A DNA stretch of 64,000 nt, from contig CAVPJZ010000001.1 in the NCBI GenBank assembly GCA_963705555.1, positions 449,009 through 513,008 of the forward strand, given 5' to 3'. The translations under genes and the position numbers were made by a program. The first letter of the stretch is position 1, and each line of letters opens with the position of its first letter. Shown here one piece after another: positions 7,656 to 61,564 of the stretch. The DNA is from an uncultured delta proteobacterium (GTDB lineage: Bacteria > Desulfobacterota > Syntrophia > Syntrophales > Smithellaceae). The notes beneath the pieces were generated by a model, which was not told the origin of the DNA, made no database searches, and saw only the letters and a list, made by a program, of their open reading frames with translations.

Positions 7656-8591
7656 TTAATGCCTTATACGTGAATCAGCAGCGTTATGCCCCATTTTATA
7701 TTTGAGCCAATTTATATAAAAGAAAGTGAAAATAGCGAAAACTAATGACGGAAGAGCTGCTTCCCGACTAAAGATAATAAGCGCTATACCCCCGGAAAGC
7801 CCGTAGTTTTTCATGGTTCCCAGAAGAAGAAGAGAAGTGATCTTCTTTTCAGCGACATGAAAAAGCTCTCCAGTTTTCTCAATTGCCAGAGCGAACAAAA
7901 AAATACCTATGACAGCAATGAAAGAGATAACATAAAGGTCGTCTGGCCAATTCAAAAGCATATCCCTTCCGTTTGCTGTTAGGGAATAAAAGACAATAAA
8001 TAGACAGCAATCGGTTATTATATTTTCATATGGTTCAATGATTTTATCCCATTCTTTTTCCACAACGAGTCGGGAAAGTCCAAGCGGCAGTATAATTAAT
8101 TCGAGCTATCAGTAAAATAATATTCCAATAATTCAAGGGAATATCTTTAAGAAATCCTAAACCTATCAATGGTATAATTAACAATAGCGCCCAAATACGC
8201 TCCCGCAAATCCCGCGTATGTACGAAGTAGCATCAGCCCGCAATGAATTACCCAAGGATAATATGTCCACTGCAGGCGGTATTGCGGCAATCAGCACCAT
8301 GCCAATCCAAAGGGCTTCGTCGAGAATAAAAAACATGCCGGTCAAAATTATAAAATTTCCCCAGAGAAGATAGTTCATGACATTGCCGCTGATCGCCGAA
8401 CCGAAAAGCTTTTTGGGGTGGCGGAAAAAACCGCGCGGTATTTTCAAAGGTGCAATTGTCAGAATGATCGTCAACGCGGGCAAAGTCAGGGCGGCGGCAA
8501 CTACATTTGCCTGAGGTAAAACAAAACCGCAAAGTACAGACGCGAGAAAAACTATATTGGAGCGGGAAACAAGATATTTGAAGCGAGCCAT
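7656..8591 (-). pseudogene. polytopic permease (AEC / bile-acid:Na+ symporter-like), about 2 frame breaks
   Basis: ORFs 8178-8630 (likely start MARFKYL at 8591 with a GAGG SD) and 7656-8063 are both multi-TM. The linking region 8064-8177 is readable in other frames. Confidence 0.45.
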
Positions 8592-8595
8592 TATT

Positions 8596-9426
8596 TTACC
8601 TCTGAAAATGCAATATTTTTTTAGCTCCAAAAATAATCAGAAAGAAAGCCACATTGAAAATTACTATAGTTCCTCCTGCCGGCAAGTTCAATAGAAAAGA
8701 AAAAACTATGCCGTTAATTACCGAGAAGATGGAAATAGCGGCAGAAATAATAATAGTCATTTTAAAGCTGAAAGAAAGCTGCAGCGCTGTTAGCGGGGGA
8801 ATAATCAGCAATGCCGAAACCAGCATTATGCCGGTGACTTTCATCGCTAAAACAACGGCCACGGCAGTCAATAGTAAAAGAATGATATTGATTCTTTTTG
8901 TTTTAATGCCCATGCTTTTGGCCAGCTCTTCGTCAAAAGTAACTGCAAACAGGTCATTATAGGAAAAAATAACAGTGCCAATTACAACTATAAAAACAAT
9001 AAAAGAAAGCAAAAGCTCCGTTTGATTTACCGTGAGAATGTTGCCGAAGAGGTAGCTTAATAAATCGACATTATAGCCTCCCGAGAAACTGGCCAAAATT
9101 ATGCCTATGGCAATTCCGACGGAAGAGATGATACCGATGGCCGCATCACCGTGAATGCGCTTGTAGTGAGTTAATTGAAGTATGGCCAGAGATGAAAGCA
9201 TAACCAGAGGCAGAGCAGCCACGGTAACATAAAGAGGGCTGAATCCAATCAATAATACTACTGCTACACTGCCAAAGGTAATATGCGCGAGTCCGTCACC
9301 AATCAAGGAAAGACGGCGCAAGACGAGAAACACTCCCAAAATGGAAGAAACGGCGGCAATGAGCACTCCGGCAAGCAAAGCTCGCTGAACGAATTCATAT
9401 TTGAATATTTCCCCAAGCCCAATCAT
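8596..9426 (-). CDS. metal (Zn/Mn) ABC transporter permease, ZnuB/MntB-like
   Basis: 276-aa polytopic ORF in an operon with an ABC ATPase and a TroA/ZnuA-type binding protein. Its start overlaps the ATPase stop. Confidence 0.85.
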   Translation of the reverse strand: MIGLGEIFKYEFVQRALLAGVLIAAVSSILGVFLVLRRLSLIGDGLAHITFGSVAVVLLIGFSPLYVTVAALPLVMLSSLAILQLTHYKRIHGDAAIGIISSVGIAIGIILASFSGGYNVDLLSYLFGNILTVNQTELLLSFIVFIVVIGTVIFSYNDLFAVTFDEELAKSMGIKTKRINIILLLLTAVAVVLAMKVTGIMLVSALLIIPPLTALQLSFSFKMTIIISAAISIFSVINGIVFSFLLNLPAGGTIVIFNVAFFLIIFGAKKILHFQR

Positions 9427-10166
9427 GGATTGTCCTCCAATGCATCATGCTGGTGGCAGATGATGTGTTGACTCATTGGTCCGAAAAGTCCTGTCATATC
9501 CGGTGAAGTGCAAAAATCTTCAAATGTTCCCGCAAAAATTACTTTCTTGTCGAGATAGAGAAGATTTCGGGCATATTTACCGATGCTCCCTATGTCATGG
9601 GTAATAAGAACGATAGTTGTGCCGTGAGCACGATTCAATTCCTCGGTGAGCGAGTAAAAAATATCTCTTGTTTCTGGATCAAGAGCGGTTGTCGGCTCAT
9701 CGAAGATAAGCAGTTCCGGCCGGCTGACTAGTGCGTGCGCCAGCATTACCCGCTGTTGTTCGCCGTAAGAGAGCTCACCGATCAGGCGGGAAGAAAGATG
9801 CTTAATTCCCATAAGTTCAAGAACCTGTTCCAAGTTTTGCGCGTTTTTATTCCGCAGTCCCAGTTGGACTATTTCTTCAACATTGCCGGGGAAATGTGTG
9901 TTTAAGGCATTTAACTTCTGGGGCAGATAACCGATTTTATTCCACTCACGAAAAGAAGAAAGCGGCTGACCGAAAAGACTGATGGAGCCTTTCTGCGGCT
10001 GCAGGATGCCCAGAATGTTTTTAATCAGAGTGCTTTTTCCCGAACCATTTGGTCCCACAATGCCCATATAATCGCCTTTTTTCACGGCAAAGGAAATATT
10101 GCTCAGGACTTCCAGTCCGTTGAAACAGAAGGTCATATTTTCGGCGCTGATCAAGTTTACGGACAT
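9423..10166 (-). CDS. metal ABC transporter ATP-binding protein, ZnuC-like
   Basis: Walker A GPNGSGKST, signature LSYGEQQR, Walker B LLIFDEP. Confidence 0.9.
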   Translation of the reverse strand: MSVNLISAENMTFCFNGLEVLSNISFAVKKGDYMGIVGPNGSGKSTLIKNILGILQPQKGSISLFGQPLSSFREWNKIGYLPQKLNALNTHFPGNVEEIVQLGLRNKNAQNLEQVLELMGIKHLSSRLIGELSYGEQQRVMLAHALVSRPELLIFDEPTTALDPETRDIFYSLTEELNRAHGTTIVLITHDIGSIGKYARNLLYLDKKVIFAGTFEDFCTSPDMTGLFGPMSQHIICHQHDALEDNP

Positions 10167-11087
10167 AACAATCCCTTTTTTAAATTTTTCAAATTCTCTT
10201 CCATTAACAAGAGAAAGGATACCCCTTTTTTTATATCATCCTTGCTTATATCGTGGCCATTGCTGAGTTTCAGCAAACCCGCACCTGTTTCTTTGGCAAT
10301 AGTTTGCGCCAGGCGCGGAGCGGTCAGGTCTTCATAATAAAGGTAACGTATCTTTTGCTTTTTTATTTGTTCGATTAGAGTAAAAATATTTTGCGGCAGA
10401 GGTTCAGATTCGACCGATGCATTATAAGCTGCAATATATTTTAAGTTATATTTTTTGGCCAAATAAGCAAAAGCCCAGTGTCCGGCGTGCAAAATTGTTT
10501 TGGTCCGGCATTTGGCCAGTTCAGAGTTATATCTTCGATCCAGAGCAGCCAATTTCAATTTGTATTGAGCGGCGTTTTTTATATAATAGTCGCTGTTACG
10601 CTGATCCTTTTTGATAAAAGACATGGTAATATTATCCACCATTTTTTGAGCATTATCCAAATCCAGCCAGATGTGCGGATCGAACTTATAATTTTTATTT
10701 TCCTGGTCTTCTTCACTGAGCGGCAGCAGGAAAACGCCCGCGCCGGTTTCTACCGCCAGCATATTCGTATTGTTCCGCCGATCCCTGGATGATTTTATAA
10801 GCCCATTGTTCCATTTCAAAGTTGGTGAAAAGAAAAATATCGCTTTTACACACTTTAATTATGTCATTGGGTTTCAGCTCATAATGATGCGCATCTGTTG
10901 CCGGCGGCAAAATCATGGTTACATCGATTTTATTTCCGCCGATAATCCGGGCGAAATCATAAAGGGGAAAAATCGTGGCCATTACTTTTAATTTGTTATC
11001 CGCCGCGTGTGTTTCTTTCGTGGGCTGACAGGATAAAATAATTAAGGAAAGGCAAAGAAGGAAAACGAATATATTTTTTAAAGACAT
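10157..11087 (-). pseudogene. periplasmic metal-binding lipoprotein (ZnuA/TroA family), one frame break near 10720-10810
   Basis: Signal peptide/lipobox MSLKNIFVFLLCLSLIILSCQ. Also ATIFPLYDFARIIGG, DAHHYELKP, and a C-terminal part in ORF 10157-10819. Confidence 0.8.
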
Positions 11088-11092
11088 AATCT

Positions 11093-11563
11093 TCACACCT
11101 GTTTGTTTTGCTGTTTTTGCAACTTGGTTGCATTTCTGCATATGGCGCAAAGGCCGGATATATTGATTTCGATATGGTCAATGCTGTAATCATCTTTCCC
11201 GGAAATTAGCTGACGAGCTTGGGAAAAGGTCAGAGGTTCCATGCAGCTCAACTCTCCGCAGTTCCGGCAGTTAAAATGAGGATGCACAGGATTTTCCAGC
11301 GAAGCCATTTCAAAATAATTAGTGCCGCCGGGAGAAGCTATTTCACGGGCAATACCATGTTGTTTAAAGAGAGACAGAATACGATAAATAGTGACTCTAT
11401 CAATGCGTGCTTTGGCCGCAAGTGTTTGACTTATATCGCGTACACTTAAAGGTGTTGTTGCTTCGAACAATAAGGTCAAAACAGCAATACGCTGCGGTGT
11501 TTTAGAAAGTCCGGCATTTTGCAAAGTAAACAAGACATCTTTATATTTCTTATTCATATTCAT
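11093..11563 (-). CDS. Fur-family metalloregulator (Zur-like by context)
   Basis: 156 aa. Winged-helix part KTPQRIAVLTLL...VTIYRIL. HPHFNCRNCGELSC and CAICR metal-site cysteines. It is the first gene of the metal ABC operon. Confidence 0.85.
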   Translation of the reverse strand: MNMNKKYKDVLFTLQNAGLSKTPQRIAVLTLLFEATTPLSVRDISQTLAAKARIDRVTIYRILSLFKQHGIAREIASPGGTNYFEMASLENPVHPHFNCRNCGELSCMEPLTFSQARQLISGKDDYSIDHIEINISGLCAICRNATKLQKQQNKQV

Positions 11564-17197: not shown

Positions 17198-17938
17198 ATG
17201 ACAAATAAACCAAAAGAAAAGAAAATCTCTAACGGGATAAAATCCTGGCCCAAAGATGACCGGCCGAGGGAGAAGCTGCTCAAAAAAGGCGCGGGAGCGC
17301 TGAGCAATTCCGAGCTTTTAGCGATACAGCTGCGCACCGGCGTCCAGGGCAATAGCGCCATTGATTTGGCCAGAAAGATGCTGGCTAAGTTTGGTACTTT
17401 CCGCAACATGAGCCACTCTGATATCCGCGATTGGAAAGAATTTAAGGGTTTGGGCCCGGCCAAAATCGCGCAAATTAAAGCCGCCCTCGAAATCGGTCGG
17501 CGTTTCCGCGAAGACGAAGTCGTAAGCGCCAAGCAAAAAATTGCCACTGCCGGGGATGTTGTCGATATCATCATGCCGCAAATGCGCGACCTCAAGACTG
17601 AAGTTTTTAAAGTTGTCTATCTCAACAGCAACAACGGAATCATCGATATTGCCGATGCCGCCGTAGGCACTGTCAATCAGGCCGCGCCGATTGTGCGGGA
17701 AATTATCCATGCGGCATTACAGAAATTTGCCGCCTCTATCATCTGTGTTCACAATCACCCCAGCGCGAATATTACACCCAGCCCGGAAGATAAAAAAATT
17801 ACGGCCGAGCTGACAGCCGCATGCAATGTAATGGGAATCAGGATGCTGGATCATATCATCATCGGCGACGGGAATTACTTTAGCTTTGCGGATGCAGGGA
17901 ATAATGGAGTAGCATGGCAATTAATAATTAGAGGAAGA
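17198..17938 (+). CDS. radC: RadC-like JAB/MPN domain protein, with no in-frame stop before hsdR (read-through or indel artefact)
   Basis: HhH region [31 protein letters not shown] motif [19 protein letters not shown]. Both alternative frames have stops at 17902-17912. Confidence 0.85.
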
Positions 17939-20342
17939 ATGACAAATAAAAAAGAATTATCCGAACGAGACATTTGTACACAGTTTATTCTGCCTGCGTT
18001 GGTTAAGGCCGGATGGGATGTGGAAAAGCAAATCCGCGAGGAAGTCTTTTTTACTGATGGTCGTATTTTTGTTAAAGGTAATAGAACGGCTCGTGGTGAA
18101 CGCAAACGCGCTGATTTTATTCTCTATCTTAAACCCAATATCCCAATAGCAGTTATTGAAGCTAAAGATAACAATCATTCCGTAGGCGCAGGATTGCAGC
18201 AGGCGCTGAAATATGCTGGTACACTCGATATTCCAATCGCATTCAGTTCCAATGGCGATGGCTTTATCATGCATGATTGTTCGGGCTATTCTCATCCGAT
18301 CGAACAGGATTTATCATTGGACACTTTTCCATCGCCAGCCGCTCTTTGGGCGATCTATAAAAAATATAAGGGAATTGAAACTCCTGAACAGGAAGAAATA
18401 GCTTCTTTTGATTATTTTTTTGACGGTTCTGGTCGAGCGCCGCGTTACTATCAGCAAATTGCCATCAATAGAACCGTAGAAGCTATTGCCCAAGGCCAGA
18501 ATCGCATTTTGCTTGTTATGGCGACGGGTACTGGAAAAACATATACAGCTTTTCAGATCATTTACCGTCTTTGGAAAAATGGGCGGAAGAAAAGAATTTT
18601 ATTTTTAGCAGATCGCAATGTTCTTATTGATCAAACCAAGCGCAATGATTTTAAACATTTTAAAGACCGCATGACAGTTATCAGAAAAAAGAAGATCGAT
18701 AAAGCATTTGAAATATATCTTGCGCTATATCAGGGGCTCACAAACTACAATGAAGATAAGGACGCTTATCGGGAATTCAGCCGGGATTTCTTTGATCTGA
18801 TAATCGTGGATGAGTGTCATCGTGGAAGTGCGGATGCCGACAGTGCGTGGCGGGAGATTCTCACCTATTTCAGTTCGGCTACCCAGATCGGACTTACTGC
18901 TACACCAAGAGAAACGAAAGAAATATCCAATATCGAATATTTCGGCGAACCGATTTACACCTATACTCTCAAGCAGGGTATTGAAGACGGATTTTTAGCT
19001 CCCTACAAAGTTATTCGTGTCGGATTAAACGTTGATCTTGAAGGCTGGCGACCTGAAGAAGGGAAAAAGGACAAAGACGGTCATGAAATTGAAGATCGTA
19101 TTTATAACACCAAAGATTTTGATAAAAACTTGGTTATAGATGAAAGAACACAATTAGTTGCCAAAAAAGTTTCTGAATATCTAAGGAAAACAAACCGCTT
19201 TGATAAAACTATCATATTCTGTGTGGACATAGAGCACGCGGAGCGCATGCGTAAGGCTTTGGCGATTGAGAATCAAGACCTAGTGTTGGAAAATCACAAA
19301 TATATTATGCGTATTACCGGCGATGATGATGAGGGCAAGCGGGAGGTGGATAATTTCATCAATCCCGAAGAACGCTATCCTGTTATTGCTACCACTTCAA
19401 AACTAATGACTACCGGAGTTGACGCGCAAACCTGCAAGCTGATTGTTCTTGATTCAAATATTAAATCCATGACTGAATTCAAACAGATTATCGGTCGCGG
19501 GACGCGCATCAATGAAGAGTATGGCAAAACCTATTTTGCCATCATGGACTTTCGCAATGTTACCGATCTTTTTGCTGATCCGGCGTTTGACGGTGATCCG
19601 GTAATGATTAAGCAAGTAAAAGGCGAAGAAGAATTAACCGACAAAGATATTTATCCTGAAGAAGATCAGGAAATTATTGATCCTGAAACCGGTACGATGG
19701 TTGATTTCTCTATAGGTGAACGTAAGGTACCCGACAACGCCGGAGATAATTACAGGCGGTGAAATTATTTCTGAGCCTCGTCCCAAAGTCTATGTTGCTG
19801 GTGTTGATGTATCCATCCTTAATGAACGGGTTCAGCATCTTGACGGCAACGGGAAGCTTATTACCGAAACACTAAAAGATTATACAAAGAAAGGTATTTT
19901 ACAGGAATATCGTACACTTGATGAATTTCTTAAACGTTGGAATAGTACTAGAAAGAAGAAAGCCATTATTGAAGAACTGGAATCACACGGCATAATTCTG
20001 GAAAACCTTCTGGACGAAGTAAAAAAAGATTTGGATATATTTGATCTGATTTGCCATATCGCCTGGGACATGCCCGCGCTGACGCGTAAAGAAAGAGCGG
20101 AGAAGGTGAGAAAGCGCAACTACTTTACAAAATATGGTGAGAAAGCGCGCATTGTTATCGAGGCTCTTTTAGATAAATATGCCGACGAAGGTATTGAAAA
20201 TATCGAAGACCTTGCTGTCTTGCGTATTGAACCATTCAATAAAATCGGAACACCGGCGGAAATCATTCAGATATTCGGCGGCAGAGATAAATATCTATAC
20301 GTTATCGAAGAACTGGAACACGAACTCTACGCAGCAGCTTAA
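17939..20342 (+). pseudogene. hsdR: type I restriction enzyme R subunit (EcoEI-like C-terminal domain), one frame break near 19730
   Basis: N-terminal nuclease ADFILYL...IAVIEAKD. Helicase motif I MATGTGKT and motif [11 protein letters not shown]. The C-terminal part continues in ORF 19716-20342. Confidence 0.9.
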
Positions 20343-20351
20343 GGACAATCA

Positions 20352-21810
20352 ATGAAAAATATCGGCAATATTATTAAAACACTACAAAATATCATGCGCA
20401 AAGACCCTGGCGTTTCCGGTGATGCCCAGCGCATCGAGCAATTGGGCTGGATGATTACTTTAAAAATTTTGGATGATAAAGATAAGGAACTTGAAGCTGA
20501 TTGATGAAAAGTATAAATCACCGATACCCGAGTTTTCTGCAATGGCGCAATTGGGCTGGTGATGATGAAGGGATGACCGGAGAGGATTTGAAAAAATTTA
20601 TTGATGGCAAACTTATTCCCAAGCTTAAAAATCTTGATGTGAGTTCTGGTAATAAACGTGCGCTCATTATCCGTGAAATATTTGACGGCACCAATAACTA
20701 CATGAAAAACGGCACAATCATTCGTCAGGTGCTGAATGAACTAAACAAGATTGATTTTAATAGTTCGGAAGACCGCCACGTTTTCGGTGATATTTACGAA
20801 ACGATCTTGCGCGACCTGCAAAGCGCTGGTAATTATGGCGAATTCTACACACCCCGTGCGTTGACCGAGTTTATGACCGAAATGGTTAATCCGCGTCTGG
20901 GTGAAAAAGTGCTTGATCCGGCCTGCGGTACAGGTGGCTTTTTAACCAGCGCCATTGAAAATATCCGCAAGCAGGATGTTAAAGGTGTTGAAGATCTCAA
21001 AGTACTTGGAAAAAACCATTCACGGCATGGAATTAAAACCGCTGCCGTTTATGCTTTGTGTTACCAATCTGATTTTGCATGATATAGAAGTTCCTAATGT
21101 TGATTATACCGACAGTTTGAATCGTGAATATACATCCATCGGACAAAAAGATCGGGTGGATGTAATTCTGGCCAATCCGCCGTTTGGTGCATCGGTTACC
21201 GATGGAGTGGAAACCAATTTCCCGCTGAATTTCCGGACAACGGAAAGCGCTGATCTGTTTTTGATGCTGATGATGCGCTATCTCAAAGACGGAGGCCGCG
21301 CCGGTATTGTTCTGCCTGATGGTTCGCTTACTGGCGATGGCGTAAAACAGCGCATCCGCCAGCACTTTCTGGAAAACTGCAATCTACATACAATTGTTCG
21401 GCTTGCCGAATTCGGTTTTTCAACCTTATGCCAGCGTTGCCACCAATCTGCTTTTCTTTGAGAAAGGAAAACCGACAAAAGAAATTTGGTATTGGGAGCA
21501 TAAACTGCCGGAAGGGGTGAAAGCCTACAACAAAACAAAGCCGATTCAGAAAAAGTGAATTTGATAAGTCTGAAAAAATGGTGGAAGAAACGCAAAGAAA
21601 ATGAACAGGCGTGGAAAGTCTCAATCGATACGATTATTGCAGGAACGGTTACAACCTTGACATTAAAAATCCCCATACACCGGAAGTAACACACGAATAT
21701 ACCAGCACTGAGCTTGTGAAGCTATGCTTCATGATTCGTTTAGAAAGAGTGATGAACTCTTGGAGAAATTGAAGAAGGAGCTTAGCGAATGGCTGAATGG
21801 TACCAATTGA
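20352..21810 (+). pseudogene. hsdM: type I R-M N6-adenine DNA methyltransferase subunit, about 6 frame breaks
   Basis: SAM motif LDPACGTGGFL and catalytic ANPPFG. Fragments lie in ORFs 20501-21082 and 20955-21461 and in further frames to 21810. Confidence 0.88.
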
Positions 21811-23133
21811 CGAACTTTTTGATTTTGAAAAAGGTTCAGTGCAAAGTTCAAAGTGCACTGCCTGGCAAATATACTTTTATTACTGCTGCTGAAGAATGGA
21901 AAACGCATCAAGCATATACTCATGATTGCTGAAGCTTTGATATTTGCAATGGCAGCTTCCGGTTCGTTTGGCAGAACACATTACATAAAAGGCAAATTCA
22001 TTTCCAGTGATTTTTGTTTTATTCTAACGCCCAAGAAAGGGTTAGCAGGACTTGATTTAACTTTCTATTACAGACTCTTTAATTTTCTCCGATCAGATAT
22101 TGTAAAAAAAACAGCAACCGGAACTTCAAAGAATTGGCAATCAATCAGACAACTTTTGGAGCATATAAACTTCCATATTTTGACTTACGATCATCAGTTG
22201 ATTTTCAGAGATAAAATAGAAAATATTAAATCAACATTAGGAAAGTTGATTCATCTTTAGCGGTACTTGGAACTGAACAAGTTATCATTATCCTACAAAT
22301 AACTTCGTCCGGCAATCTATATTGCAGGAAGCCATTGAAGGAAAGCTTACTGGCGACTGGCGAAAGCAAAATCCGAAATTAATCAGCGGTGAAAATCACG
22401 CTTCAAAATTGCTTGAAAAAATCAAAGCCGAAAAAGAACGGTTGATCAAAGAAGGGAAGATAAAGAAAGAAAAACCGCTTGCACCAATTAACTGATGAAG
22501 AAAAGACTTTTGATTGCCCGAAGGATTGGGTGTGGTGCAGGTTGGGAGAAATTGTTTTGGCATTGAATATGGATCAAGTGCGAACTCTAAATAAGGATGG
22601 CAAAGGTCCGTATCTTGAATGGGAAATTTACAAAATGGTCAAATCTTGATTGGGAGGATTTATGTCTATACTAGCAATGATACGGAAGAGAAAAGCACTT
22701 ACTTGAGAATAATGAATCGGACAGATGTTCAGCCATAGAAGGTGATTTATTAGTTCGTGATAGGTGGCAAAGCGGGTCGTTCCATATGAGAATGATGATA
22801 TAATATTTATGTCTGAGTCATATCCGTGAGGTTCCATATTGCGAGATTAATATCACATCTATAATATATACATATTTTCAAATAATTCATCATTTCACAG
22901 ATGAAATACAATAAAGTAAAAGCAGGTGTCTGCGGTCATATCTAACATTATATGCAACAAAACTTAGAGATTATAGATATCCCCTCGCGCCAATTACCGA
23001 GCAACAAGCCATTGTCGAGCGGGTGGATAAACTTATGGCCATGATTGACGAACTGGAAAAACAAGTCACCGAACGCAAAGACAAATCCGAAAGACTGATG
23101 CAGTCGGTATTACGCGAGGCATTTATGCAATGA
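21789..23133 (+). pseudogene. hsdS: type I R-M specificity subunit, heavily disrupted (>=6 breaks, worst at 22540-22990)
   Basis: TRD1 fragment ALIFAMAASGSFGRTHYIKGKFISSDFCFILTPK. Central helix [21 protein letters not shown]. Conserved C-terminal helix PLAPITEQQAIVERVDKLMAMIDELEKQV. Confidence 0.8.
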
Positions 23134-24635
23134 AAGTATATTTTTCTGATATTTTCAAAGTTAGCCCCGATGTGCTTGAAAAATATGGCGCACTTAATAT
23201 TTCTTTAATTAATGATTTGCCGTTGTTTATTGATCCATTCCTGCTATTCAATAGTCCTAAACCAGAATATCAAAGACTACATAAAGAGATTTTACGATAC
23301 GTGGCTTTCCTAAGGGATCGCTCTGTTGAGCAATCTGTTAGCAAAGGACTACTCAAAAGCTGGTATACATTCCCAGAAGTTAAGCAGACTTGGTTGGGAT
23401 ATAGTGAAGTAGGTAACAGGGGACGTGGGCCGGGGATAGATTTTGCACGTGCATTTGATGAAAATTTAAAAGGGCAATTTTCTGATTTTGATAAAGATAC
23501 TATATGCCAGAGTCCGCATTTGGAAAAATTTTGTTTAGTTAAAGAAAAAATCGGTAAAGATAATATAAGTGATTTTGTAACTAATTTAATTAAAGGTTTT
23601 TTACTCCGATATACGGAAAAGTTTGCACAAAAATATATAGATTCATCAATGAGAAAAAGTTTTACAGTTAGTCATGTTGATTTTAATTATACGACATGTT
23701 CATGGAATTCCAGGCAATTCGAGCTTCCTATTGATATCTTGAATACTCAAAAAGAAGACTACGTTTTATTAACACCAAAAGATTTATTAACTAAAGACGA
23801 TACTTGGATAAATAAGACTGATTTAGTCAACAATTTTAATAATATTGTTTCAGCGGTATCTAATGAAGAGCTACGTGCACAGCTAAGTTTTTATTTTGTC
23901 AGAAATTTACCGAAGCCAAAATATACTAAGAAAGGCAAAGAAAAGAAACCAAGTAAGACTGACATAGTAAAAGCAGTTGGCGCTGTAATAAAAGAATATC
24001 CAACGCTGATCGATTATTACATTAAATATAAAGAGGATAAGAGTGAAGAAGCCAAGTCGGTTAGCGGTGAACGTGTCGCTGAAGTACAAAAGTTATTTAT
24101 CGAAAACCTTTCAAGATTTATTAGTTTATTGAATAAAGAAACTAAATTTTATTTTATTGAAAAAGATACGCTTTCGGCTGCCTATGAGCGTGTTTTGTTT
24201 TTAAAAAATGTTATTGAAAATAAAGATGGTTATAGAATCTTCTATATCAAAGGTGTGCCTATTAAACGTGAGACTGACGTGCATGTCATGTTTCGTTTAA
24301 CTTGGTTTGCATCACCAGATGACGTTACGCCTGAAGCAAATGACGGGCGTGGGCCTGTTGATTTTAAAATTTCCCAAGGTGCTTTTGATAAGTCCTTAGT
24401 GGAATTTAAATTAGCATCTAATACGCAGCTTGCAAAAAATCTACAAAATCAGGTTGAAATCTACAAGAAAGCCCATGATACGGATAAAGCCATAAAGGTA
24501 ATAATATTTTTTTCGGCGAAAGAAGAGAGACGAGTGAAAAATATTCTTACAGCTTTGGGACTTTCTAATGAAAAATATGTTGTTTTAATAGATGCGAGAA
24601 AAGACAACAAAGTAGCTGCTTCAAAAGCTAAATGA
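23130..24635 (+). CDS. uncharacterised 501-aa protein with PD-(D/E)xK-like C-terminal motif, translationally coupled to hsdS
   Basis: Intact ORF whose ATG overlaps the hsdS stop (ATGA). The C-terminus reads ETDVHVMF...GRGPVDFKIS...SLVEFKLAS (E / PVD / ExK spacing). I do not recognise the N-terminal 350 aa. Confidence 0.6.
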   Translation: MKVYFSDIFKVSPDVLEKYGALNISLINDLPLFIDPFLLFNSPKPEYQRLHKEILRYVAFLRDRSVEQSVSKGLLKSWYTFPEVKQTWLGYSEVGNRGRGPGIDFARAFDENLKGQFSDFDKDTICQSPHLEKFCLVKEKIGKDNISDFVTNLIKGFLLRYTEKFAQKYIDSSMRKSFTVSHVDFNYTTCSWNSRQFELPIDILNTQKEDYVLLTPKDLLTKDDTWINKTDLVNNFNNIVSAVSNEELRAQLSFYFVRNLPKPKYTKKGKEKKPSKTDIVKAVGAVIKEYPTLIDYYIKYKEDKSEEAKSVSGERVAEVQKLFIENLSRFISLLNKETKFYFIEKDTLSAAYERVLFLKNVIENKDGYRIFYIKGVPIKRETDVHVMFRLTWFASPDDVTPEANDGRGPVDFKISQGAFDKSLVEFKLASNTQLAKNLQNQVEIYKKAHDTDKAIKVIIFFSAKEERRVKNILTALGLSNEKYVVLIDARKDNKVAASKAK

Positions 24636-24647
24636 AAGGGATTTTTT

Positions 24648-26444
24648 ATGAGCACACAACGTTATTCGGTTACACCGCAGCCAATTGAAACTATTTTGAC
24701 ATGGGAGAAAACAAAAGAAATTGCCATACCTGAGATTCAACGTCCTTTTGTATGGGATGCGACGAAGGTTCGTAATCTTCTGGACTCATTATACTTAGGT
24801 TACCCTATTGGATATTTAATTACCTGGCGTAACCCTTCGGTTAAATTGAAGGACGGAACTTCATCACAGGGGAAAAGGATATTAATTGACGGGCAACAGC
24901 GTGTAACTGCCCTTATGGCTGCTATACTAGGCAGGGAAGTGCTGACAAAGGATTATGAGAATGTAAAAATAAAAATTGCTTTCCACCCTATAGATGAAAA
25001 GTTTGAAGTTGCTAACCCTGCAATTCAAAAAGATACCAGTTGGATTTATGACATTGCCAAAGTTTTTGCCCCTTCTTCCAGCCTTGTGGAATTAACTGAT
25101 AATTATATATTAGCGAATCCTGATGCTGACAAACATGCAATATCCATAATTTTAGAAAAATTGCGGAAAATAATATACAACTTTGTGGGTATAATTGAAC
25201 TTGATGGTGATCTGGACATTGAAACAGTTACCGAGATATTTATACGTGTCAATTCTGCCGGCGCACAGCTTAGCCAAGCTGACTTTGCCATGTCAAAGAT
25301 TTCAGTTAATGAAACTTATGGCGGGAATACGCTACGCAAGGCGATTGACTATTTCTGCCACATGTCTGTTTATCCTGATTTTTATACAATCGTTCAGAAA
25401 AACGATCCAGTTTTCTGCAAAACTGAATTTTTTCAAAAAATGTCATGGCTTAAAAACGAGAATGAAGATATTTATGATCCCTCATATACAGATATGCTGC
25501 GTGTCGCTTTCACAACAGAGTTCAAGCGCGGCAAACTGCAAGACTTGGTAGCCTTAGTATCAGGTCGAAATTTTGAAACTAAAAAGTATGAAGAATCCAT
25601 TGTTGAGGATTCCTTCACCCGTTTAAAATCTAGTATATTTGCTTTTATGAATGAAACACATTTTAAGCGGTTTGTGATGATTGTTCGTTCGGCTGGATTC
25701 GTGGATTCTTCTCTTATCGGTTCCCAAAATGCACTTAACTCTGCTTATATCGTTTACCTGACATTACGAGGGATAAAGACACCCGATGCGGATATAGAAA
25801 GTAATGTGCGTAAGTGGTTTGTATTTTCAGTGCTAACGGGCCGCTATTCTGGTTCCCCTGAGTCTATGTTTGATTATGATATACGTCAGATTCATGCACA
25901 AGGATTTGCACCCTACGCCGAGAGTCTCTATGCTGGTGAACTTTCTGATGCATTCTGGAGTGCAAGTCTTCCTCAGGAGATGGATACGTCTGTAGCTTCA
26001 AGCCCATACTTTAGAGTTTTTCAAGCAGCACAGATCACGCTTGGCGATAAAGGATTTTTATCAAAAGATTTGAGTGCACGCGAATTAATTGAGGTCAAGT
26101 CGGATGTGCATCATCTGTTTCCAAAGAATTATCTTAAAAAACAAGGACTAAATAGGGGACAATACAATCAGATTGCTAATTATGCTGTGGCACAAAGTGA
26201 AATTAATATTGCGATAGGGAACAAAGAACCAAGTAAATATATGTCTGAAGTGCTTGATCAATGTAATGGCGGGAAAAAGAAATATGGCAATATTATAAAT
26301 ATCGATGATCTGAATACAAATTTTAAAATGAACTGCATTCCGGAAGGTATGGAAAATATGAGTGTGGCAGATTATCCGCAGTTTTTGGCGGCACGCCGTG
26401 TCTTGATGGCGAATAAGATAAAAACCTACTTTAAAAAACTATAG
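24648..26444 (+). CDS. GmrSD-family DUF262/DUF1524 protein (type IV, modification-dependent restriction-like)
   Basis: N-terminal [10 protein letters not shown] and [11 protein letters not shown] (DUF262/ParB-like). C-terminal [11 protein letters not shown]...NQIANYAV (His-Me finger, DUF1524). Confidence 0.85.
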
Positions 26445-27553: not shown

Positions 27554-28150
27554 ATGCTTAGTAGAAACATAACCAAATTGCAGGAATTAAGCAAAAAATC
27601 CTATTTTACCCTTGATGATATGGCGCTGAATTTTAACTTTCAGGCGGCATCCGCCCGCGTATTTTGCAGCCGTTACGTCCGGCAGGGGCTGTTGGTCAGA
27701 TTGAAAAATAATATTTACACAACCGCCTGGAAATGGGAAGCTCTGACACGACAGGATTTGTATAAAATCGCCAATGTATTGCAGGTTCCTTCCTATATTT
27801 CCCTGATGACGGCCCTGGCGTATTATGACGTGACAACACAGGCGCAGAACAATTATCAGGAAAGCGTCTGTCTGAAACGTTCGATTACTTACAATGTCCG
27901 GGAAGCCGTTTTCAGTTATGTAAAATTGCAGCGCCAATATTATGGCGATTTTATTAAAATGGACGGTATATTTATCGCTACCAAAGAAAAAGCGTTTCTG
28001 GACGCGGTCTATCTTTACTCATTCGGCAAATATAAGTTCGACGTTGACTCGTTGGACATGAAGAAACTGGAATTGAAAAAACTAAAAAGCCTGTTGAAAA
28101 ATTATCCGAAAAAAACAAAAGAAACGGCGAAAAGACTGTGCGGGATTTAA
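27554..28150 (+). CDS. AbiEi-family antitoxin/transcriptional regulator (type IV TA)
   Basis: 198-aa ORF immediately upstream of, and overlapping, an AbiEii-type nucleotidyltransferase gene. The N-terminal region is wHTH-like. Confidence 0.7.
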   Translation: MLSRNITKLQELSKKSYFTLDDMALNFNFQAASARVFCSRYVRQGLLVRLKNNIYTTAWKWEALTRQDLYKIANVLQVPSYISLMTALAYYDVTTQAQNNYQESVCLKRSITYNVREAVFSYVKLQRQYYGDFIKMDGIFIATKEKAFLDAVYLYSFGKYKFDVDSLDMKKLELKKLKSLLKNYPKKTKETAKRLCGI

Positions 28151-28806
28151 TTCAACACGAGCAATTTGAGCTGGAAGTCCTCGACAGGCTTAACAGCGGA
28201 CGATTTCTGGCCGGCTTGATTTTCGGCGGCGGCACTATGTTGCGCTTATGTCACGGACTGGATCGTTATTCAGTGGATCTGGATTTCTGGGTCGTAAAGG
28301 ATATCGACTGGGCAAAGTTTTACCGGAAGCTAGAAAAATATTTATTGCAGTTTTATAAGCTTGCCGATTCCGCCAACAAACATTTTACAATTCTATTCGA
28401 ATTGAAATCGCCGCAATTTCCAAGGGCGCTGAAAATAGAAATTCGAAAAGAGGCAAAGATCATCAAAACGGAAACCAGCATAGCTTACAGTGCCAACTCC
28501 AATATTCAGGTTCTGATAAAAACCATGGCGCTGGAAGAAATGATGAGGTCAAAAATTGAGGCCTTTCTCAGCCGCAAGGAAATACGTGATGCATACGATA
28601 TTGAGTTCTTATTAAAAAGAGGCATACCCCTTGCCGCTGAAAAAGAAACCCTGGTCGAACTGCTTACCGGATTGGAAAAGCTCGGTAAAAAAGACTTTTC
28701 CGTGAAGTTGGGGACGTTGCTAGACGTATCTGCACGAAAATATTACCTGGAAAATGGATTCCGCATTCTGGAAACAAGCCTGCAAGATAAAATTAGAGCC
28801 AATTAA
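28138..28806 (+). CDS. AbiEii/AbiGii-family nucleotidyltransferase toxin (DUF1814)
   Basis: GGGTMLRLCHGLDRYSVDLDFW (GG...DxD NTase motif). The GTG start overlaps the AbiEi stop. Confidence 0.8.
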   Translation: MRDLIQHEQFELEVLDRLNSGRFLAGLIFGGGTMLRLCHGLDRYSVDLDFWVVKDIDWAKFYRKLEKYLLQFYKLADSANKHFTILFELKSPQFPRALKIEIRKEAKIIKTETSIAYSANSNIQVLIKTMALEEMMRSKIEAFLSRKEIRDAYDIEFLLKRGIPLAAEKETLVELLTGLEKLGKKDFSVKLGTLLDVSARKYYLENGFRILETSLQDKIRAN

Positions 28807-58365: not shown

Positions 58366-59584
58366 TAAGCTTTTTCTGCAAGTGTTGCGGCGATGGCGTC
58401 AATAAAACCTTCCGTATTGACTTTTTTGTTGGAAGATTTTTTTTCGGCAAGCGCGAGCAAATCACCGGTCATGGTGCCGCTCTCGACCGTAGCAATGGCC
58501 GCTTCTTCGAGCTTATCGGCAAACTTTATCACTTCCGGAGTGCCGTCCAGCTCGCCGCGTTTGCGCAGGCCGCCGCGTCCAGGCAAAAATCAGCGCCATG
58601 GAATTGCTGGAAGTTTCTTCGCCTTTTAAATGTTTGTAGTAATGCTTTTGCACGGTGCCGTGCGCGGCTTCATATTCAAACCAGCCGTTGGGTGAAACCA
58701 GTACGGATGTCATCATGGCCAGCGATCCGCAGGCGGAAGCGATCATATCCGACATGACATCGCCGTCGTAATTTTTCAGCGCCCAGAGCATACCGCCTTC
58801 GCTTTTCATAATGCGCGCCACGGCATCGTCAATCAGGGTAAAGAAATATTCAATTCCCGCTTTTTCAAATTTTTCTTTCCAGTTTTTCTCAAATTCACGA
58901 TTGAATATTTCGCGGAAGCCGGCATCGTATATTTTGGAAATAGTATCTTTGGTGGAAAACCACAAATCAATTTTTTCACTCAAAGCGTAAGTAAAACAAG
59001 CTCGGGCAAAGCTCAAAATGGATTGGTCCAGGTTATGGTTGACCTGAATAATGCCCGCTGACGGGGAAATCTTTAACCATGGTGCTTTGAGGTTTGCCGC
59101 CATCCTTGCGGAGTAAAAACAATTTCGAGTTTTCCCGCCTCCGGAATAGGCATTTCAAAATTATTGTAAACATCGCCGTAGGCGTGACGGCCTATGGTTA
59201 TCGGTTTTTTCCATGAAGAAACCGCAGGTTTGATATTATTGACTAAAATCGGTTTTCGGAAAACCGTGCCGTCGAGCATGGCGCGAATAGTGCCGTTGGG
59301 GCTTTTCCACGCTTTTTTCAAATTGTATTCTTTTACGCGGTCTTCATTGGGAGTGATGGTGGCGCATTTAATGCCGACGCCGTATTTCATAATCGCGCGG
59401 GCGGCATCAACAGTAACCTGGTCATCGGTATCATCGCGATGTTTGACATGCAGATCGTAATAATCAATATTCATATCCAGATAGGGAAAGAGAAGCTTAT
59501 CCTTAACCATCTGCCACATGACGCGGGTCATTTCATCGCCGTCCATTTCGACGATGGTAGTTTTTACTTTGATCTTTTTTGCCA
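58365..59584 (-). pseudogene. icd: NADP-dependent isocitrate dehydrogenase (IDH1-like homodimeric type), >=3 frame breaks
   Basis: [24 protein letters not shown].., [40 protein letters not shown].., [11 protein letters not shown]. Spread over ORFs 59073-59753, 58513-59103 and 58365-58586 plus a third frame near 59080. Confidence 0.88.
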
Positions 59585-59617
59585 TAAAAAATGTTGCTCC
59601 GATATTTATTTGCCTTT

Positions 59618-61564
59618 TTATTTTGCGTTGCGGATGTTGAGCGCTCCACCGGCCAGGATTATTTGTCTTTTGTCTTGCGGATAATTCGCAAGTAACATAA
59701 AAAGAAGTGCCCTTGGTTTTGTTTTGCACCAGAAGATTGCCGTCCTGCGGCAATTATTTTTCTGGCGTCGGCAATTTCCAGTTCATCTCCCTGATCGATT
59801 TTGTCATAGTCGCTCTCGACTGCAGAAAGTTAGCGGCAGTATGCCGAAATTAATCAAATTGGCGGCATGAATTCTTTCGAACGATTTGGCAATTACAGCG
59901 CGTACGCCCAGATACATGGGGCATAAAGCGGCATGTTCACGCGAAGAGCCCTGGCCATAAGATAAACCGGCTACAATGATATTTTGCTTTCCCGCTTCTT
60001 TTATTTCATAAGCGCGTTTGGCAAAAGTCGGCATCAACATTTTCAAAAACAAACTCGGAATATTTGGGAATGTTCGAGCGGTATTTCATCCGCGCACCGG
60101 CGGGAATAATATGGTCGGTTGTAATTTTATCGCCGACTTTTATCGTGACTTGAGCTTGAATAGTTTCCGGAAGCACTGAATTTTCGGGCGGAGCGCCGAT
60201 GTTAGGACCGCGGTAAATTTCTCCGCCGGTATTTTTCTTGTCCGGCCAGATTATCATGGAGTCGTCAATGAAAAACTTTTCCGGCATTTTAACTTTGGGA
60301 TAAGCGCATTTTCAAATCGCGCGGATCGGTAAATTGTCCCGGTGATTACTGCTGCCGCGGCAGTTTCCGGACTTACCAGATAAACATCGGCATCCATGGT
60401 TCCCGAGCGCCCCAGGAAATTACGGTTGGATGTGCGCAGTGATACGGCGCCGGATTGGGGACTCTGGCTGTTGCCGATGCAAAAGCCGCAGGCATTTTCC
60501 ATAATTCGCGCTCCTGAGGCGATCAAGTCGGCAAGATAACCGTTACGGGCGAGATTTTCCAGTACCTGTCTCGAGCCCGGCGCTAAAATAAAACTGACGT
60601 CGGGATGCACCATTTTACCCTTTAATATTTTAGCTACTGTTACCAAATCTTTGTAGGAAGAATTGGTGCAGCTGCCCAGACAAACCTGATCCACGGCAAT
60701 TTTTTTCATGTTCCTGACCGTGCCGATATTATCCGGGCTGTGGGGCTTGGCCGTCAGTGGTTCGATTATGGATAAGTCAATATCAACTACTTTGGCGTAA
60801 GTTGCGTCTTTATCGGCTTTAAGTTCCGTAAAATCTGTTTCTCTTTGTTGTGAGCGCAAGGAATAGTCGCGTCATTTCATCGCTGGGGAAAATAGAAGTC
60901 GTCACACCGCATTCCGCTCCCATATTGGTTATCGTGGCGCGTTCGGGAACGCTAAGAGAAGCGGCGCCTTTTCCGCCATACTCGAATACCGTGCCGACAT
61001 TTCCTTTGGTGGTAAAAATTTCCAGCACTTTAAGAATAACATCCTTGGCGGAAACCCAGGGCTTAAGCTTGCCGGTGAGATTGATTTTAATAACCTTGGG
61101 ACAAATCAGATAAAACGGTTCACCGGCCATAGCCAACGCGACATCAAGGCCTCCCGCGCCGATGGCAATCATGCCTAGAGCGCCGCAGGTAGGAGTGTGG
61201 CTGTCCGAGCCGATAAGCGTTTTTGCCGGGTTTGCCGAATCTTTCTAAATGGACCTGATGGCAAATGCCGTTTCCCGCGCGGGAAAGAACAATGCCGAAT
61301 TTTTGTGCCACACTCTGCAAATAACGATGGTCGTCCGCGTTTTCAAAACCGACTCTGAATCGTGTTATGATCAATGTAGCTTACGGACAACTCGGTTTTC
61401 ACTTTGGGCACGTTCATGGCTTCGAATTGCAGATAGGCCATGGTTCCTGTGGCATCCTGCGTCAGAGTTTGATCGATGCGAATGCCGATTTCTTCTCCGG
61501 GTACAAGATTACCGGAAATCAAATGTTGCGCAAGAATTTTTTCAACTAAATTTTTTCCCATCAA
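59618..61564 (-). pseudogene. aconitate hydratase (about 645-aa Aquifex/Thermotoga-type), >=6 frame breaks
   Basis: N-terminus NLVEKILAQHL..GEEIGIRIDQTLTQDATGTM. Also GSDSHT-like, CLGSCTNSSYKDL, and CGFCIGN in ORF 60254-60859. The swivel domain lies at 59804-60287. The tail [13 protein letters not shown] ends at 59618. Confidence 0.8.

Follow-up and report, generated by a model that had tools for sequence, protein, structure and literature searches.

The 64,000-nt stretch analysed here, hereafter the window (contig CAVPJZ010000001.1 of assembly GCA_963705555.1, from an uncultured delta proteobacterium of the Smithellaceae), carries at positions 23130–24635 of its forward strand a gene whose product is probably an autonomous sensor-nuclease that serves in defence; the gene is appended to a type I restriction-modification (R-M) operon, with which it is probably co-expressed. 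In the mechanism we favour, the N-terminal domain, DUF8370, would be a sensor or switch and, when triggered, would set a RecB-like PD-(D/E)xK effector to cut DNA, either that of the phage or, in an abortive-infection mode, that of the host. The gene, apparently acquired horizontally, would be the 3'-terminal, translationally coupled gene of the type I R-M operon and, with an independent GmrSD type IV enzyme coming next, would form part of a stacked defence island. This reading is carried by homology to a validated defence protein, by the conservation of the nuclease residues, by the swapping of effectors among relatives and by a recurrent linkage to R-M systems. The gene and the parts of its product referred to below are the following.

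23130–24635, plus strand: DS-20-family gene (DUF8370 + DUF8371), 501 aa, assigned from the intact open reading frame (ORF), DS-20 homology and precomputed PF28123 and PF28130
23130–24164, plus strand: N-terminal domain DUF8370, residues 1–345, proposed sensor or regulator, from the AlphaFold2 model
23412–23447, plus strand: glycine-rich loop G95-N-x-G98-x-G100-x-G102..F105-A106, running into helix 103–114, invariant or nearly so
24165–24632, plus strand: C-terminal domain DUF8371, residues ~346–501, predicted RecB-like PD-(D/E)xK nuclease and proposed effector, from the model core and fold matches
24360–24362, plus strand: codon (GAT, in GRGPVDF) of D411, the putative catalytic aspartate, invariant in 63 sequences and gone in 17 of 17 effector-swapped relatives
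24402–24410, plus strand: codons of E425-F-K427 (ExK motif), E425 and K427 invariant
24450–24464, plus strand: codons of Q441-V-E-I-Y445 (QxxxY, RecB-family motif), Q441 and Y445 invariant, in helix 434–448

By BLASTP, the protein encoded by this intact ORF aligned over its whole length (query residues 1–501, subject residues 4–487) with Escherichia coli WP_032291790.1, at 52% identity and 70% positives (E = 0). WP_032291790.1, of 487 aa, is DS-20 (working identifier PDX1), a one-gene clone flagged as replicated, for which the -log10 efficiency of plating was about 1.2–1.7 on phages Bas1, Bas3, Bas11 and Bas19 (DeWeirdt, Mahoney & Laub, Science 2026, supplementary tables, PMC13092281). The full-length identity of 52% therefore places the window gene in a family of which one member has been validated against phages by experiment, and the window copy would itself be expected to defend. 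In E. coli PEC1003, the DS-20 gene is flanked by psu and int in a P4-like satellite at tRNA-Leu. The first-pass annotation had proposed a candidate novel defence effector or sensor; the homology to DS-20 bears out a defence gene, while the DUF8370 and DUF8371 domains and the 52% identity to DS-20 speak against novelty. Judged by its sequence, the gene is a member of the DS-20/DUF8370-DUF8371 family and not a novel kind.

Precomputed Pfam annotation of the exact 501-aa protein gives a two-domain architecture, PF28123 (DUF8370) followed by PF28130 (DUF8371), which is also found on all of the 120 homologues listed out of more than 6,400. These homologues, retrieved by a protein database search, are nearly all about 500 aa long, and an exhaustive HMMER scan collected 2,175 family clusters at 50% identity (E <= 0.001). 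The domain assignments are precomputed ones, the Pfam copy that we searched directly holding neither PF28123 nor PF28130; Pfam and NCBIfam searches of the whole protein gave nothing above noise, and searches of Protein Data Bank (PDB) sequences, with the single protein or a profile, retrieved noise only. PADLOC, proposed earlier as a check, matched residues 27–245, in the N-terminal half, with PDC-M36A (8.8e-20), covering profile positions 29–236 of 457 only, and PHROG 30194 matched residues 4–463 (1.7e-28). Literature searches on DUF8370, DUF8371 and PDC-M36 found no papers, and those on DS-20 no follow-up paper.

A restriction-endonuclease-fold tail, with the spacing E..D(PVDF)..ExK(VEFKL), had been read from the letters alone, and both the alignment and the structural model uphold it. 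In an alignment of 63 sequences, 46–73% identical to the query, the invariant C-terminal residues are E381, E402, G406, G408, D411, E425, K427, Q441 and Y445. The full-length AlphaFold2 model (mean predicted local distance difference test, pLDDT, 88.4; predicted template modelling score, pTM, 0.85) folds residues 381–460 into an alpha-beta-beta-beta-alpha-beta core, made of helix 381–390, strands 398–403, 410–416 and 420–428, helix 434–448 and strand 454–460. In this core, helix 1 carries E381, strand 2 D411, strand 3 E425-x-K427 and the helix after it QxxxY, so that the ordered RecB-like motifs (an acidic residue on helix 1, D, (D/E)xK and QxxxY) are all present. A D on strand 2, an ExK on strand 3 and a QxxxY on the helix that follows make up, in this order, the signature of RecB/Cas4-type PD-(D/E)xK nucleases. 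The C-terminus is thus predicted to be a RecB-like PD-(D/E)xK nuclease, with an E..D(GPVDF)..ExK(VEFK) motif beyond chance, because E381, D411, E425, K427, Q441 and Y445 are invariant and sit on the core of a confident model.

Foldseek, the search suggested by the first-pass annotation, gave weak matches for this tail. The best PDB match was Can2 (8q3y, E 0.044, probability 0.77), with SfsA at probability 0.84 and EndoMS at 0.69, and viral Mrr and PD-(D/E)XK proteins were matched in BFVD (E 0.005–0.02, probabilities up to 1.00); no match of the nuclease domain reached E <= 0.001. The top matches were all PD-(D/E)xK nucleases, namely Can2, Card1, Cdn1, EndoMS/NucS, SfsA and ACE1 in the PDB and Mrr and PD-(D/E)XK proteins in BFVD. 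For DS-20, HHpred assigned a PDDEXK domain (PF18742) to residues 333–474 with probability 0.97, and the nearest known defence protein by HHblits was the PDDEXK effector LmuA of Lamassu (probability 95.6, coverage 0.17) (PMC13092281).

The N-terminal domain behaves differently in the same structural search. Modelled on its own with AlphaFold2 it is well predicted (pLDDT 93.3, pTM 0.90), mostly helical with one long beta-hairpin (residues 175–201), and Foldseek found no fold relative for it in the PDB (best E 0.42, probability 0.03). No match for residues 1–345 was found either in the Pfam copy searched, in NCBIfam or in PDB sequences, in agreement with the earlier remark that about 350 N-terminal residues resembled nothing nameable. 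The invariant residues of this domain are D29, P31-L-F33, D35-P-F-L38, H51, E83, H130, E132, K133, D144, S147, D148, D223, R249 and E302. Because many charged residues are so strongly conserved across phyla, what DUF8370 binds or processes may be universal (a nucleic acid or nucleotide, for instance) and not a phage protein that evolves fast, and the cue that it would sense may be a conserved one.

The glycine-rich loop of DUF8370 adjoins residues 91–96, the sole segment of the full-length model with pLDDT < 50. A likeness was observed, within the one protein, between GNRGRGPGIDF (residues 95–105) and the active-site loop of the nuclease, NDGRGPVDF (residues 404–412; 24339–24362): the nuclease loop reads N404-x-G406-R-G408-P-x-D411, and the N-terminal copy keeps the glycines and not the aspartate. 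The N-terminal loop might bind phosphate, or might mimic the active-site loop within the same molecule. Its reading as a second PD-(D/E)xK active site (GxGxG..DF) was rejected, as D104 is not conserved.

How the two domains divide the work is suggested by relatives of unusual length. About 1 in 9 of the 150 best cluster representatives exceed 600 aa, and in 17 longer or odd-length relatives Pfam recognised TIR_2 (nine), CHAT (three), caspase (two), SIR2_2 (one), PNP_UDP_1 (one) or EAD7 alone (one); EAD7 was found in two relatives in total, once alone and once joined to caspase. When aligned to the query, all 17 lack D411, and E425, Q441 and Y445 are often replaced. On the contrary, the N-terminal invariants are kept in 17 of 17 wherever the region is present, with the exception of D223, which varies; the other eleven charged invariants are retained save for K133 changed to R in two relatives and R249 changed to K in one. 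The retention of the N-terminal invariants, together with the loss of D411 and the presence of other modules, argues that DUF8370 is the constant part of these proteins and the nuclease one of several interchangeable killing modules. A constant front with swapped modules is the pattern of a sensor or switch that drives an effector, and supports the nuclease as the putative effector, hence the killing part, of the 500-aa form.

The immediate surroundings of the gene are those of a defence island, with the following neighbours.

17198–23133, plus strand: type I R-M operon by Pfam, frame-broken, made of a RadC-hsdR fusion ORF, an hsdR C-terminal piece, hsdM pieces and hsdS pieces
23023–23133, plus strand: last in-frame hsdS fragment, its TGA overlapping the ATG of the DS-20-family gene (ATGA)
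24648–26444, plus strand: neighbouring GmrSD/BrxU-like type IV restriction enzyme, 598 aa (PF03235, 1.1e-29; PADLOC HEC-05, 3.3e-29)

The reported coupling to hsdS was found again: the ATG of the gene (23130–23132) shares bases with the TGA (23131–23133) of the hsdS fragment, giving a 4-nt ATGA overlap, and a GAGG lies 10 nt 5' of the ATG. The product of the ORF ending at this TGA closes with ..ELEKQVTERKDKSERLMQSVLREAFMQ*, the conserved C-terminal helix of HsdS, and in the current assembly hsdS reaches the ATGA only as a 36-aa in-frame remnant. Upstream, the Pfam domains ResIII, HSDR_N, EcoEI_R_C, N6_Mtase and Methylase_S are scattered over many ORFs. At 17198–19762, a RadC-like JAB protein (UPF0758_N + RadC, residues 14–234) is joined to HsdR in one 854-aa ORF, the HsdR part being its N-terminal two thirds (HSDR_N, ResIII, Helicase_C), while the EcoEI_R_C end of the protein is encoded by an ORF of its own that overlaps the first (19716–20342); the fusion may be genuine, or the product of a lost stop or of an indel error.

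Downstream, the GmrSD-type gene is likewise present as described, its start at 24648 lying 12 nt past the stop of the 501-aa gene. Pfam detected only the N-terminal DUF262 half of its 598-aa product (GmrSD_N, PF03235), and the DGQQR (residues 80–85) and DVHHLFPK His-Me finger motifs are both intact; together with the HEC-05 match, these features identify it as a BrxU/GmrSD-like type IV restriction enzyme. Farther on, the region 27554–28806 holds an AbiEii-type nucleotidyltransferase toxin gene (28138–28806; PF08843, 2.7e-18), preceded by an overlapping 198-aa ORF lacking a Pfam match, which could be a candidate AbiEi antitoxin; the pair extends the defence island, with a nitroreductase gene lying in between. 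A promoter and terminator scan of 16.5–27 kb returned counts no higher than in shuffled sequence.

The linkage to R-M systems was surveyed at 80 loci from one-genome-per-species contigs, plus places obtained from exact-protein look-ups, by ORF calling, clustering of neighbours, Pfam naming of the recurrent clusters and hidden Markov models built from clusters. The surveyed relatives are 45–73% identical to the window protein (one 97%) and spread over many phyla. Counts refer to the informative set, the 76 non-redundant loci that had three or more neighbouring ORFs, and, for R-M genes, are lower bounds. Type I R-M genes lie within five ORFs at 19 of the 76 (the window and 18 others), and any R-M system (type I, type III mod/res, type ISP/IIG or C5 methyltransferase) at 30, leaving about 60% of loci with none nearby. 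The proposed link to type I R-M loci is therefore frequent, not obligatory. In R-M loci, the gene usually comes last in the operon and on the same strand, and 4-nt overlaps with hsdS, hsdR or a methyltransferase gene occur in at least six independent loci. An overlap or a gap of <=13 nt separates it from hsdS at L006, L009, L010, L011, L059, L073 and L017, from hsdR at L038, from a methyltransferase gene at L069 and L065, and from type III res at L058, L071 and L086. Mapped onto a maximum-likelihood tree built from 77 proteins, adjacency to type I genes requires 13 or more changes to account for the 19 linked rows, and the linkage has therefore been gained or lost many times.

The same survey, asked for by the first-pass annotation for both flanking genes, thus found the hsdS coupling again and again, and the GmrSD gene at no other surveyed locus, its presence beside homologues being confined to the window's lineage. 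GmrSD as an obligatory partner was rejected on this ground, and no conserved partner gene was found among 83 non-redundant loci. Other neighbours are a Schlafen-type helicase, a KAP NTPase, AAA_21 with RloB, PLD-SNF2 helicases and HTH with M78 proteins. The family was found on 18 plasmids, 10 of them conjugative, and tblastn against 50,697 phage genomes gave no family match.

Two of the surveyed loci deserve separate mention. At L006 (5400–7299), a pair formed by an AAA_21 ATPase and RloB is placed between hsdR and hsdM of an operon that ends in the DS-20-like gene, so that one type I locus holds two different accessory defence modules. At L019 (6704–16246), the DS-20-like gene stands between a 1,059-aa SNF2-type helicase and a 1,595-aa MmeI-like methyltransferase/target recognition domain protein, which also has a DUF559 endonuclease domain; this context resembles BREX-like, DISARM-like or type IIG loci more than type I ones.

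So tight a recurrent coupling could mean that the protein guards the R-M system according to a PrrC-like logic, remaining silent while R-M is intact and unleashing the nuclease once R-M is disabled by an anti-restriction protein of the phage (Ocr, ArdA or Stp-like). The near-contiguity with hsdS, hsdR, type III res or methyltransferase genes, at no fewer than 13 independent loci and almost always 3'-terminal on the same strand, would fit, as would the window's own clade (the window, L009, L010, L011, L006, L002 and L013), R-M linked in seven of eight rows; PrrC has been discussed as a precedent for embedded back-ups (Payne et al., bioRxiv 10.1101/2024.01.29.577857). We nevertheless consider such a guard rather improbable, since DS-20 protected when cloned alone on a plasmid (PMC13092281), a majority of loci have no R-M system within reach, and the variety of partners (type I, III, ISP, C5 methyltransferase) argues against a specific protein-protein contact. 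Moreover, a linkage that arose at least 13 times on the tree is equally well explained by a "genomic sink". The cloned-alone argument is not airtight, as MG1655, the host of the DS-20 tests, carries EcoKI. In a bolder form, to which we likewise give little credit, DUF8370 would be a new-fold, effector-agnostic sensor, and its R-M-appended forms would monitor the co-translated restriction complex and free the nuclease when a phage disables restriction; if this were true, the window would present a three-layer operon, made of type I R-M, a guard nuclease and a GmrSD type IV enzyme.

A different reading makes the protein a modification-dependent, type IV-like enzyme that complements the type I system and the adjacent GmrSD: DUF8370 would read a modified or unusual base, or a DNA structure, and the PD-(D/E)xK domain would cut directly, with no abortive infection involved. 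A reader domain followed by a PD-(D/E)xK nuclease is an architecture typical of type IV enzymes, and the protein would share this order; its gene co-localises with R-M systems and GmrSD, and the high conservation of DUF8370 points to a universal chemical ligand more than to a phage protein. The TIR, SIR2, caspase, CHAT and PNP modules that replace the nuclease, however, act on NAD+, proteins or nucleotides and not on a recognised DNA, a swap pattern better suited to a signal-to-suicide switch, and Foldseek against the PDB revealed no fold similarity of DUF8370 to known modified-base readers, making this reading quite improbable.

Whether the R-M genes upstream are truly broken bears on the last alternative. 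The gene has a GC content of 34–36%, against 41–46% in the flanks, and none of the 40 relatives searched (14 from the same genus, 10 from the family and 16 from the order) was found to carry it; owing to its 34% GC and to this absence, it looks horizontally acquired. Its nearest relative, with 97% protein identity and no indel over 1.5 kb, is that of a Desulfobacterales metagenome-assembled genome (MAG; L009), where the order hsdR-hsdM-hsdS-gene is the same. Within the window, znuA-, leuB- and leuC-like genes are also split (8181–11563 and 58516–61172): ZnuA is distributed over two ORFs (Pfam model positions 1–69 and 72–262), and the Iso_dh and aconitase genes are each split. Elsewhere, the second hsdM of the genome has in-frame stops (frame-break entry G000:C1:235003-235915), and the 6-contig genome is 73.6% complete, against 91–98% for same-genus genomes of similar size (2.3–2.8 Mb). 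A short-read contig (run ERR15459715) encodes the identical 501-aa protein and a 598-aa neighbour; there the ORF immediately upstream runs for at least 263 aa without interruption and has the same 4-nt overlap. Given these split genes, the stops in the second hsdM, the low completeness and the uninterrupted short-read contig, assembly-wide indel error is the likely and more economical reading of the hsdRMS frame breaks. Pseudogenisation specific to the R-M genes was rejected, as housekeeping genes in the window are split too.

That the gene is a non-defensive passenger, decaying or selfish (an addiction or mobile-element maintenance nuclease) and hitch-hiking with a broken R-M cassette, as the frame-broken hsdR, hsdM and hsdS, the foreign base composition and the occurrence of the family on plasmids and satellites might suggest, is highly improbable, since no damage is seen in the ORF or in its catalytic residues, the protein is nearly identical to the L009 copy, the breaks are probably assembly errors shared with the znuA-, leuB- and leuC-like genes, the upstream ORF on the short-read contig is uninterrupted for at least 263 aa, and a homologue has measured anti-phage activity (PMC13092281).

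Several points also weigh against the autonomous sensor-nuclease that we prefer. The protection conferred by DS-20 is modest, about 10–50-fold, and the source gives for it no mechanism and no catalytic mutants (PMC13092281). The PDB fold matches of the nuclease domain are weak (E 0.04–0.3), and Pfam PF18742 stays below threshold (E 0.0097, 15.9 bits vs a cut-off of 27). About a dozen invariant charged residues in DUF8370 would equally fit an enzyme, in which case "sensor" is too simple a term. Finally, the surrounding assembly is error-prone, though the 501-aa ORF is intact.

The practical result for the window is the annotation of the gene as a DS-20-family defence nuclease in a stacked defence island. 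The family is very large and spread over many bacterial phyla, with one member validated as a defence system, and DUF8370 ranks among the protein's most conserved parts, confidently modelled and with no structural relative. The remaining interest lies in the fold and function of DUF8370 and in whether the recurrent R-M coupling is functional: to learn which cue DUF8370 senses, or which reaction it catalyses, would account for an entire class of immune switches, and the R-M-appended copies are natural material for asking whether such switches back up restriction systems.

Among known systems, DS-20 is the closest, with the same two-domain architecture (487 vs 501 aa), the same invariant N-terminal motifs and the same D..ExK..QxxxY. 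It differs in being the stand-alone cargo of a P4-like satellite, whereas the window copy ends a type I R-M operon in an unrelated bacterium. Shedu (SduA) and Lamassu LmuA-type proteins resemble it in that one chain carries both a C-terminal PD-(D/E)xK nuclease and the regulatory N-terminal region that governs it, a likeness limited to the nuclease fold, since the N-terminal domain of the window protein is unrelated; no Pfam or PADLOC match to Shedu/DUF4263 models and no PADLOC match to Lamassu models was found. Can2, Card1 and Cdn1, of type III CRISPR and CBASS-like signalling, couple a ligand-sensing domain to a PD-(D/E)xK nuclease and offer a functional analogy. Their weak matches are, however, confined to the nuclease domain, DUF8370 does not have the CARF fold, and no cyclase or other signal-generating gene is linked.

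PrrC and RloC are likewise extra effectors encoded inside, or appended to, hsdRMS, which may act as back-ups. Unlike them, the window protein has no ABC-ATPase or anticodon-nuclease domain by Pfam and PADLOC and bears a DNA-type PD-(D/E)xK effector instead, and dependence on R-M is not obligatory across the DS-20 family. With PDC-M36A, the window protein shares the N-terminal half and the R-M-embedded context. The match being partial, it is a DUF8370-sharing relative and not a clear member; PDC-M36 is, in addition, a multi-gene candidate, whereas in the window the upstream genes are hsdRMS and the downstream protein matches HEC-05, PDC-M55C and SspE-type GmrSD models and no PDC-M36 component. 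The PDC set was drawn from genes lying inside BREX, DISARM or type I R-M loci ("guilt-by-embedding"), and the same study showed that the GmrSD-like HEC-05 proteins are defensive and frequently lie inside such loci too (Payne et al., bioRxiv 10.1101/2024.01.29.577857), contexts that agree with both genes of the window.

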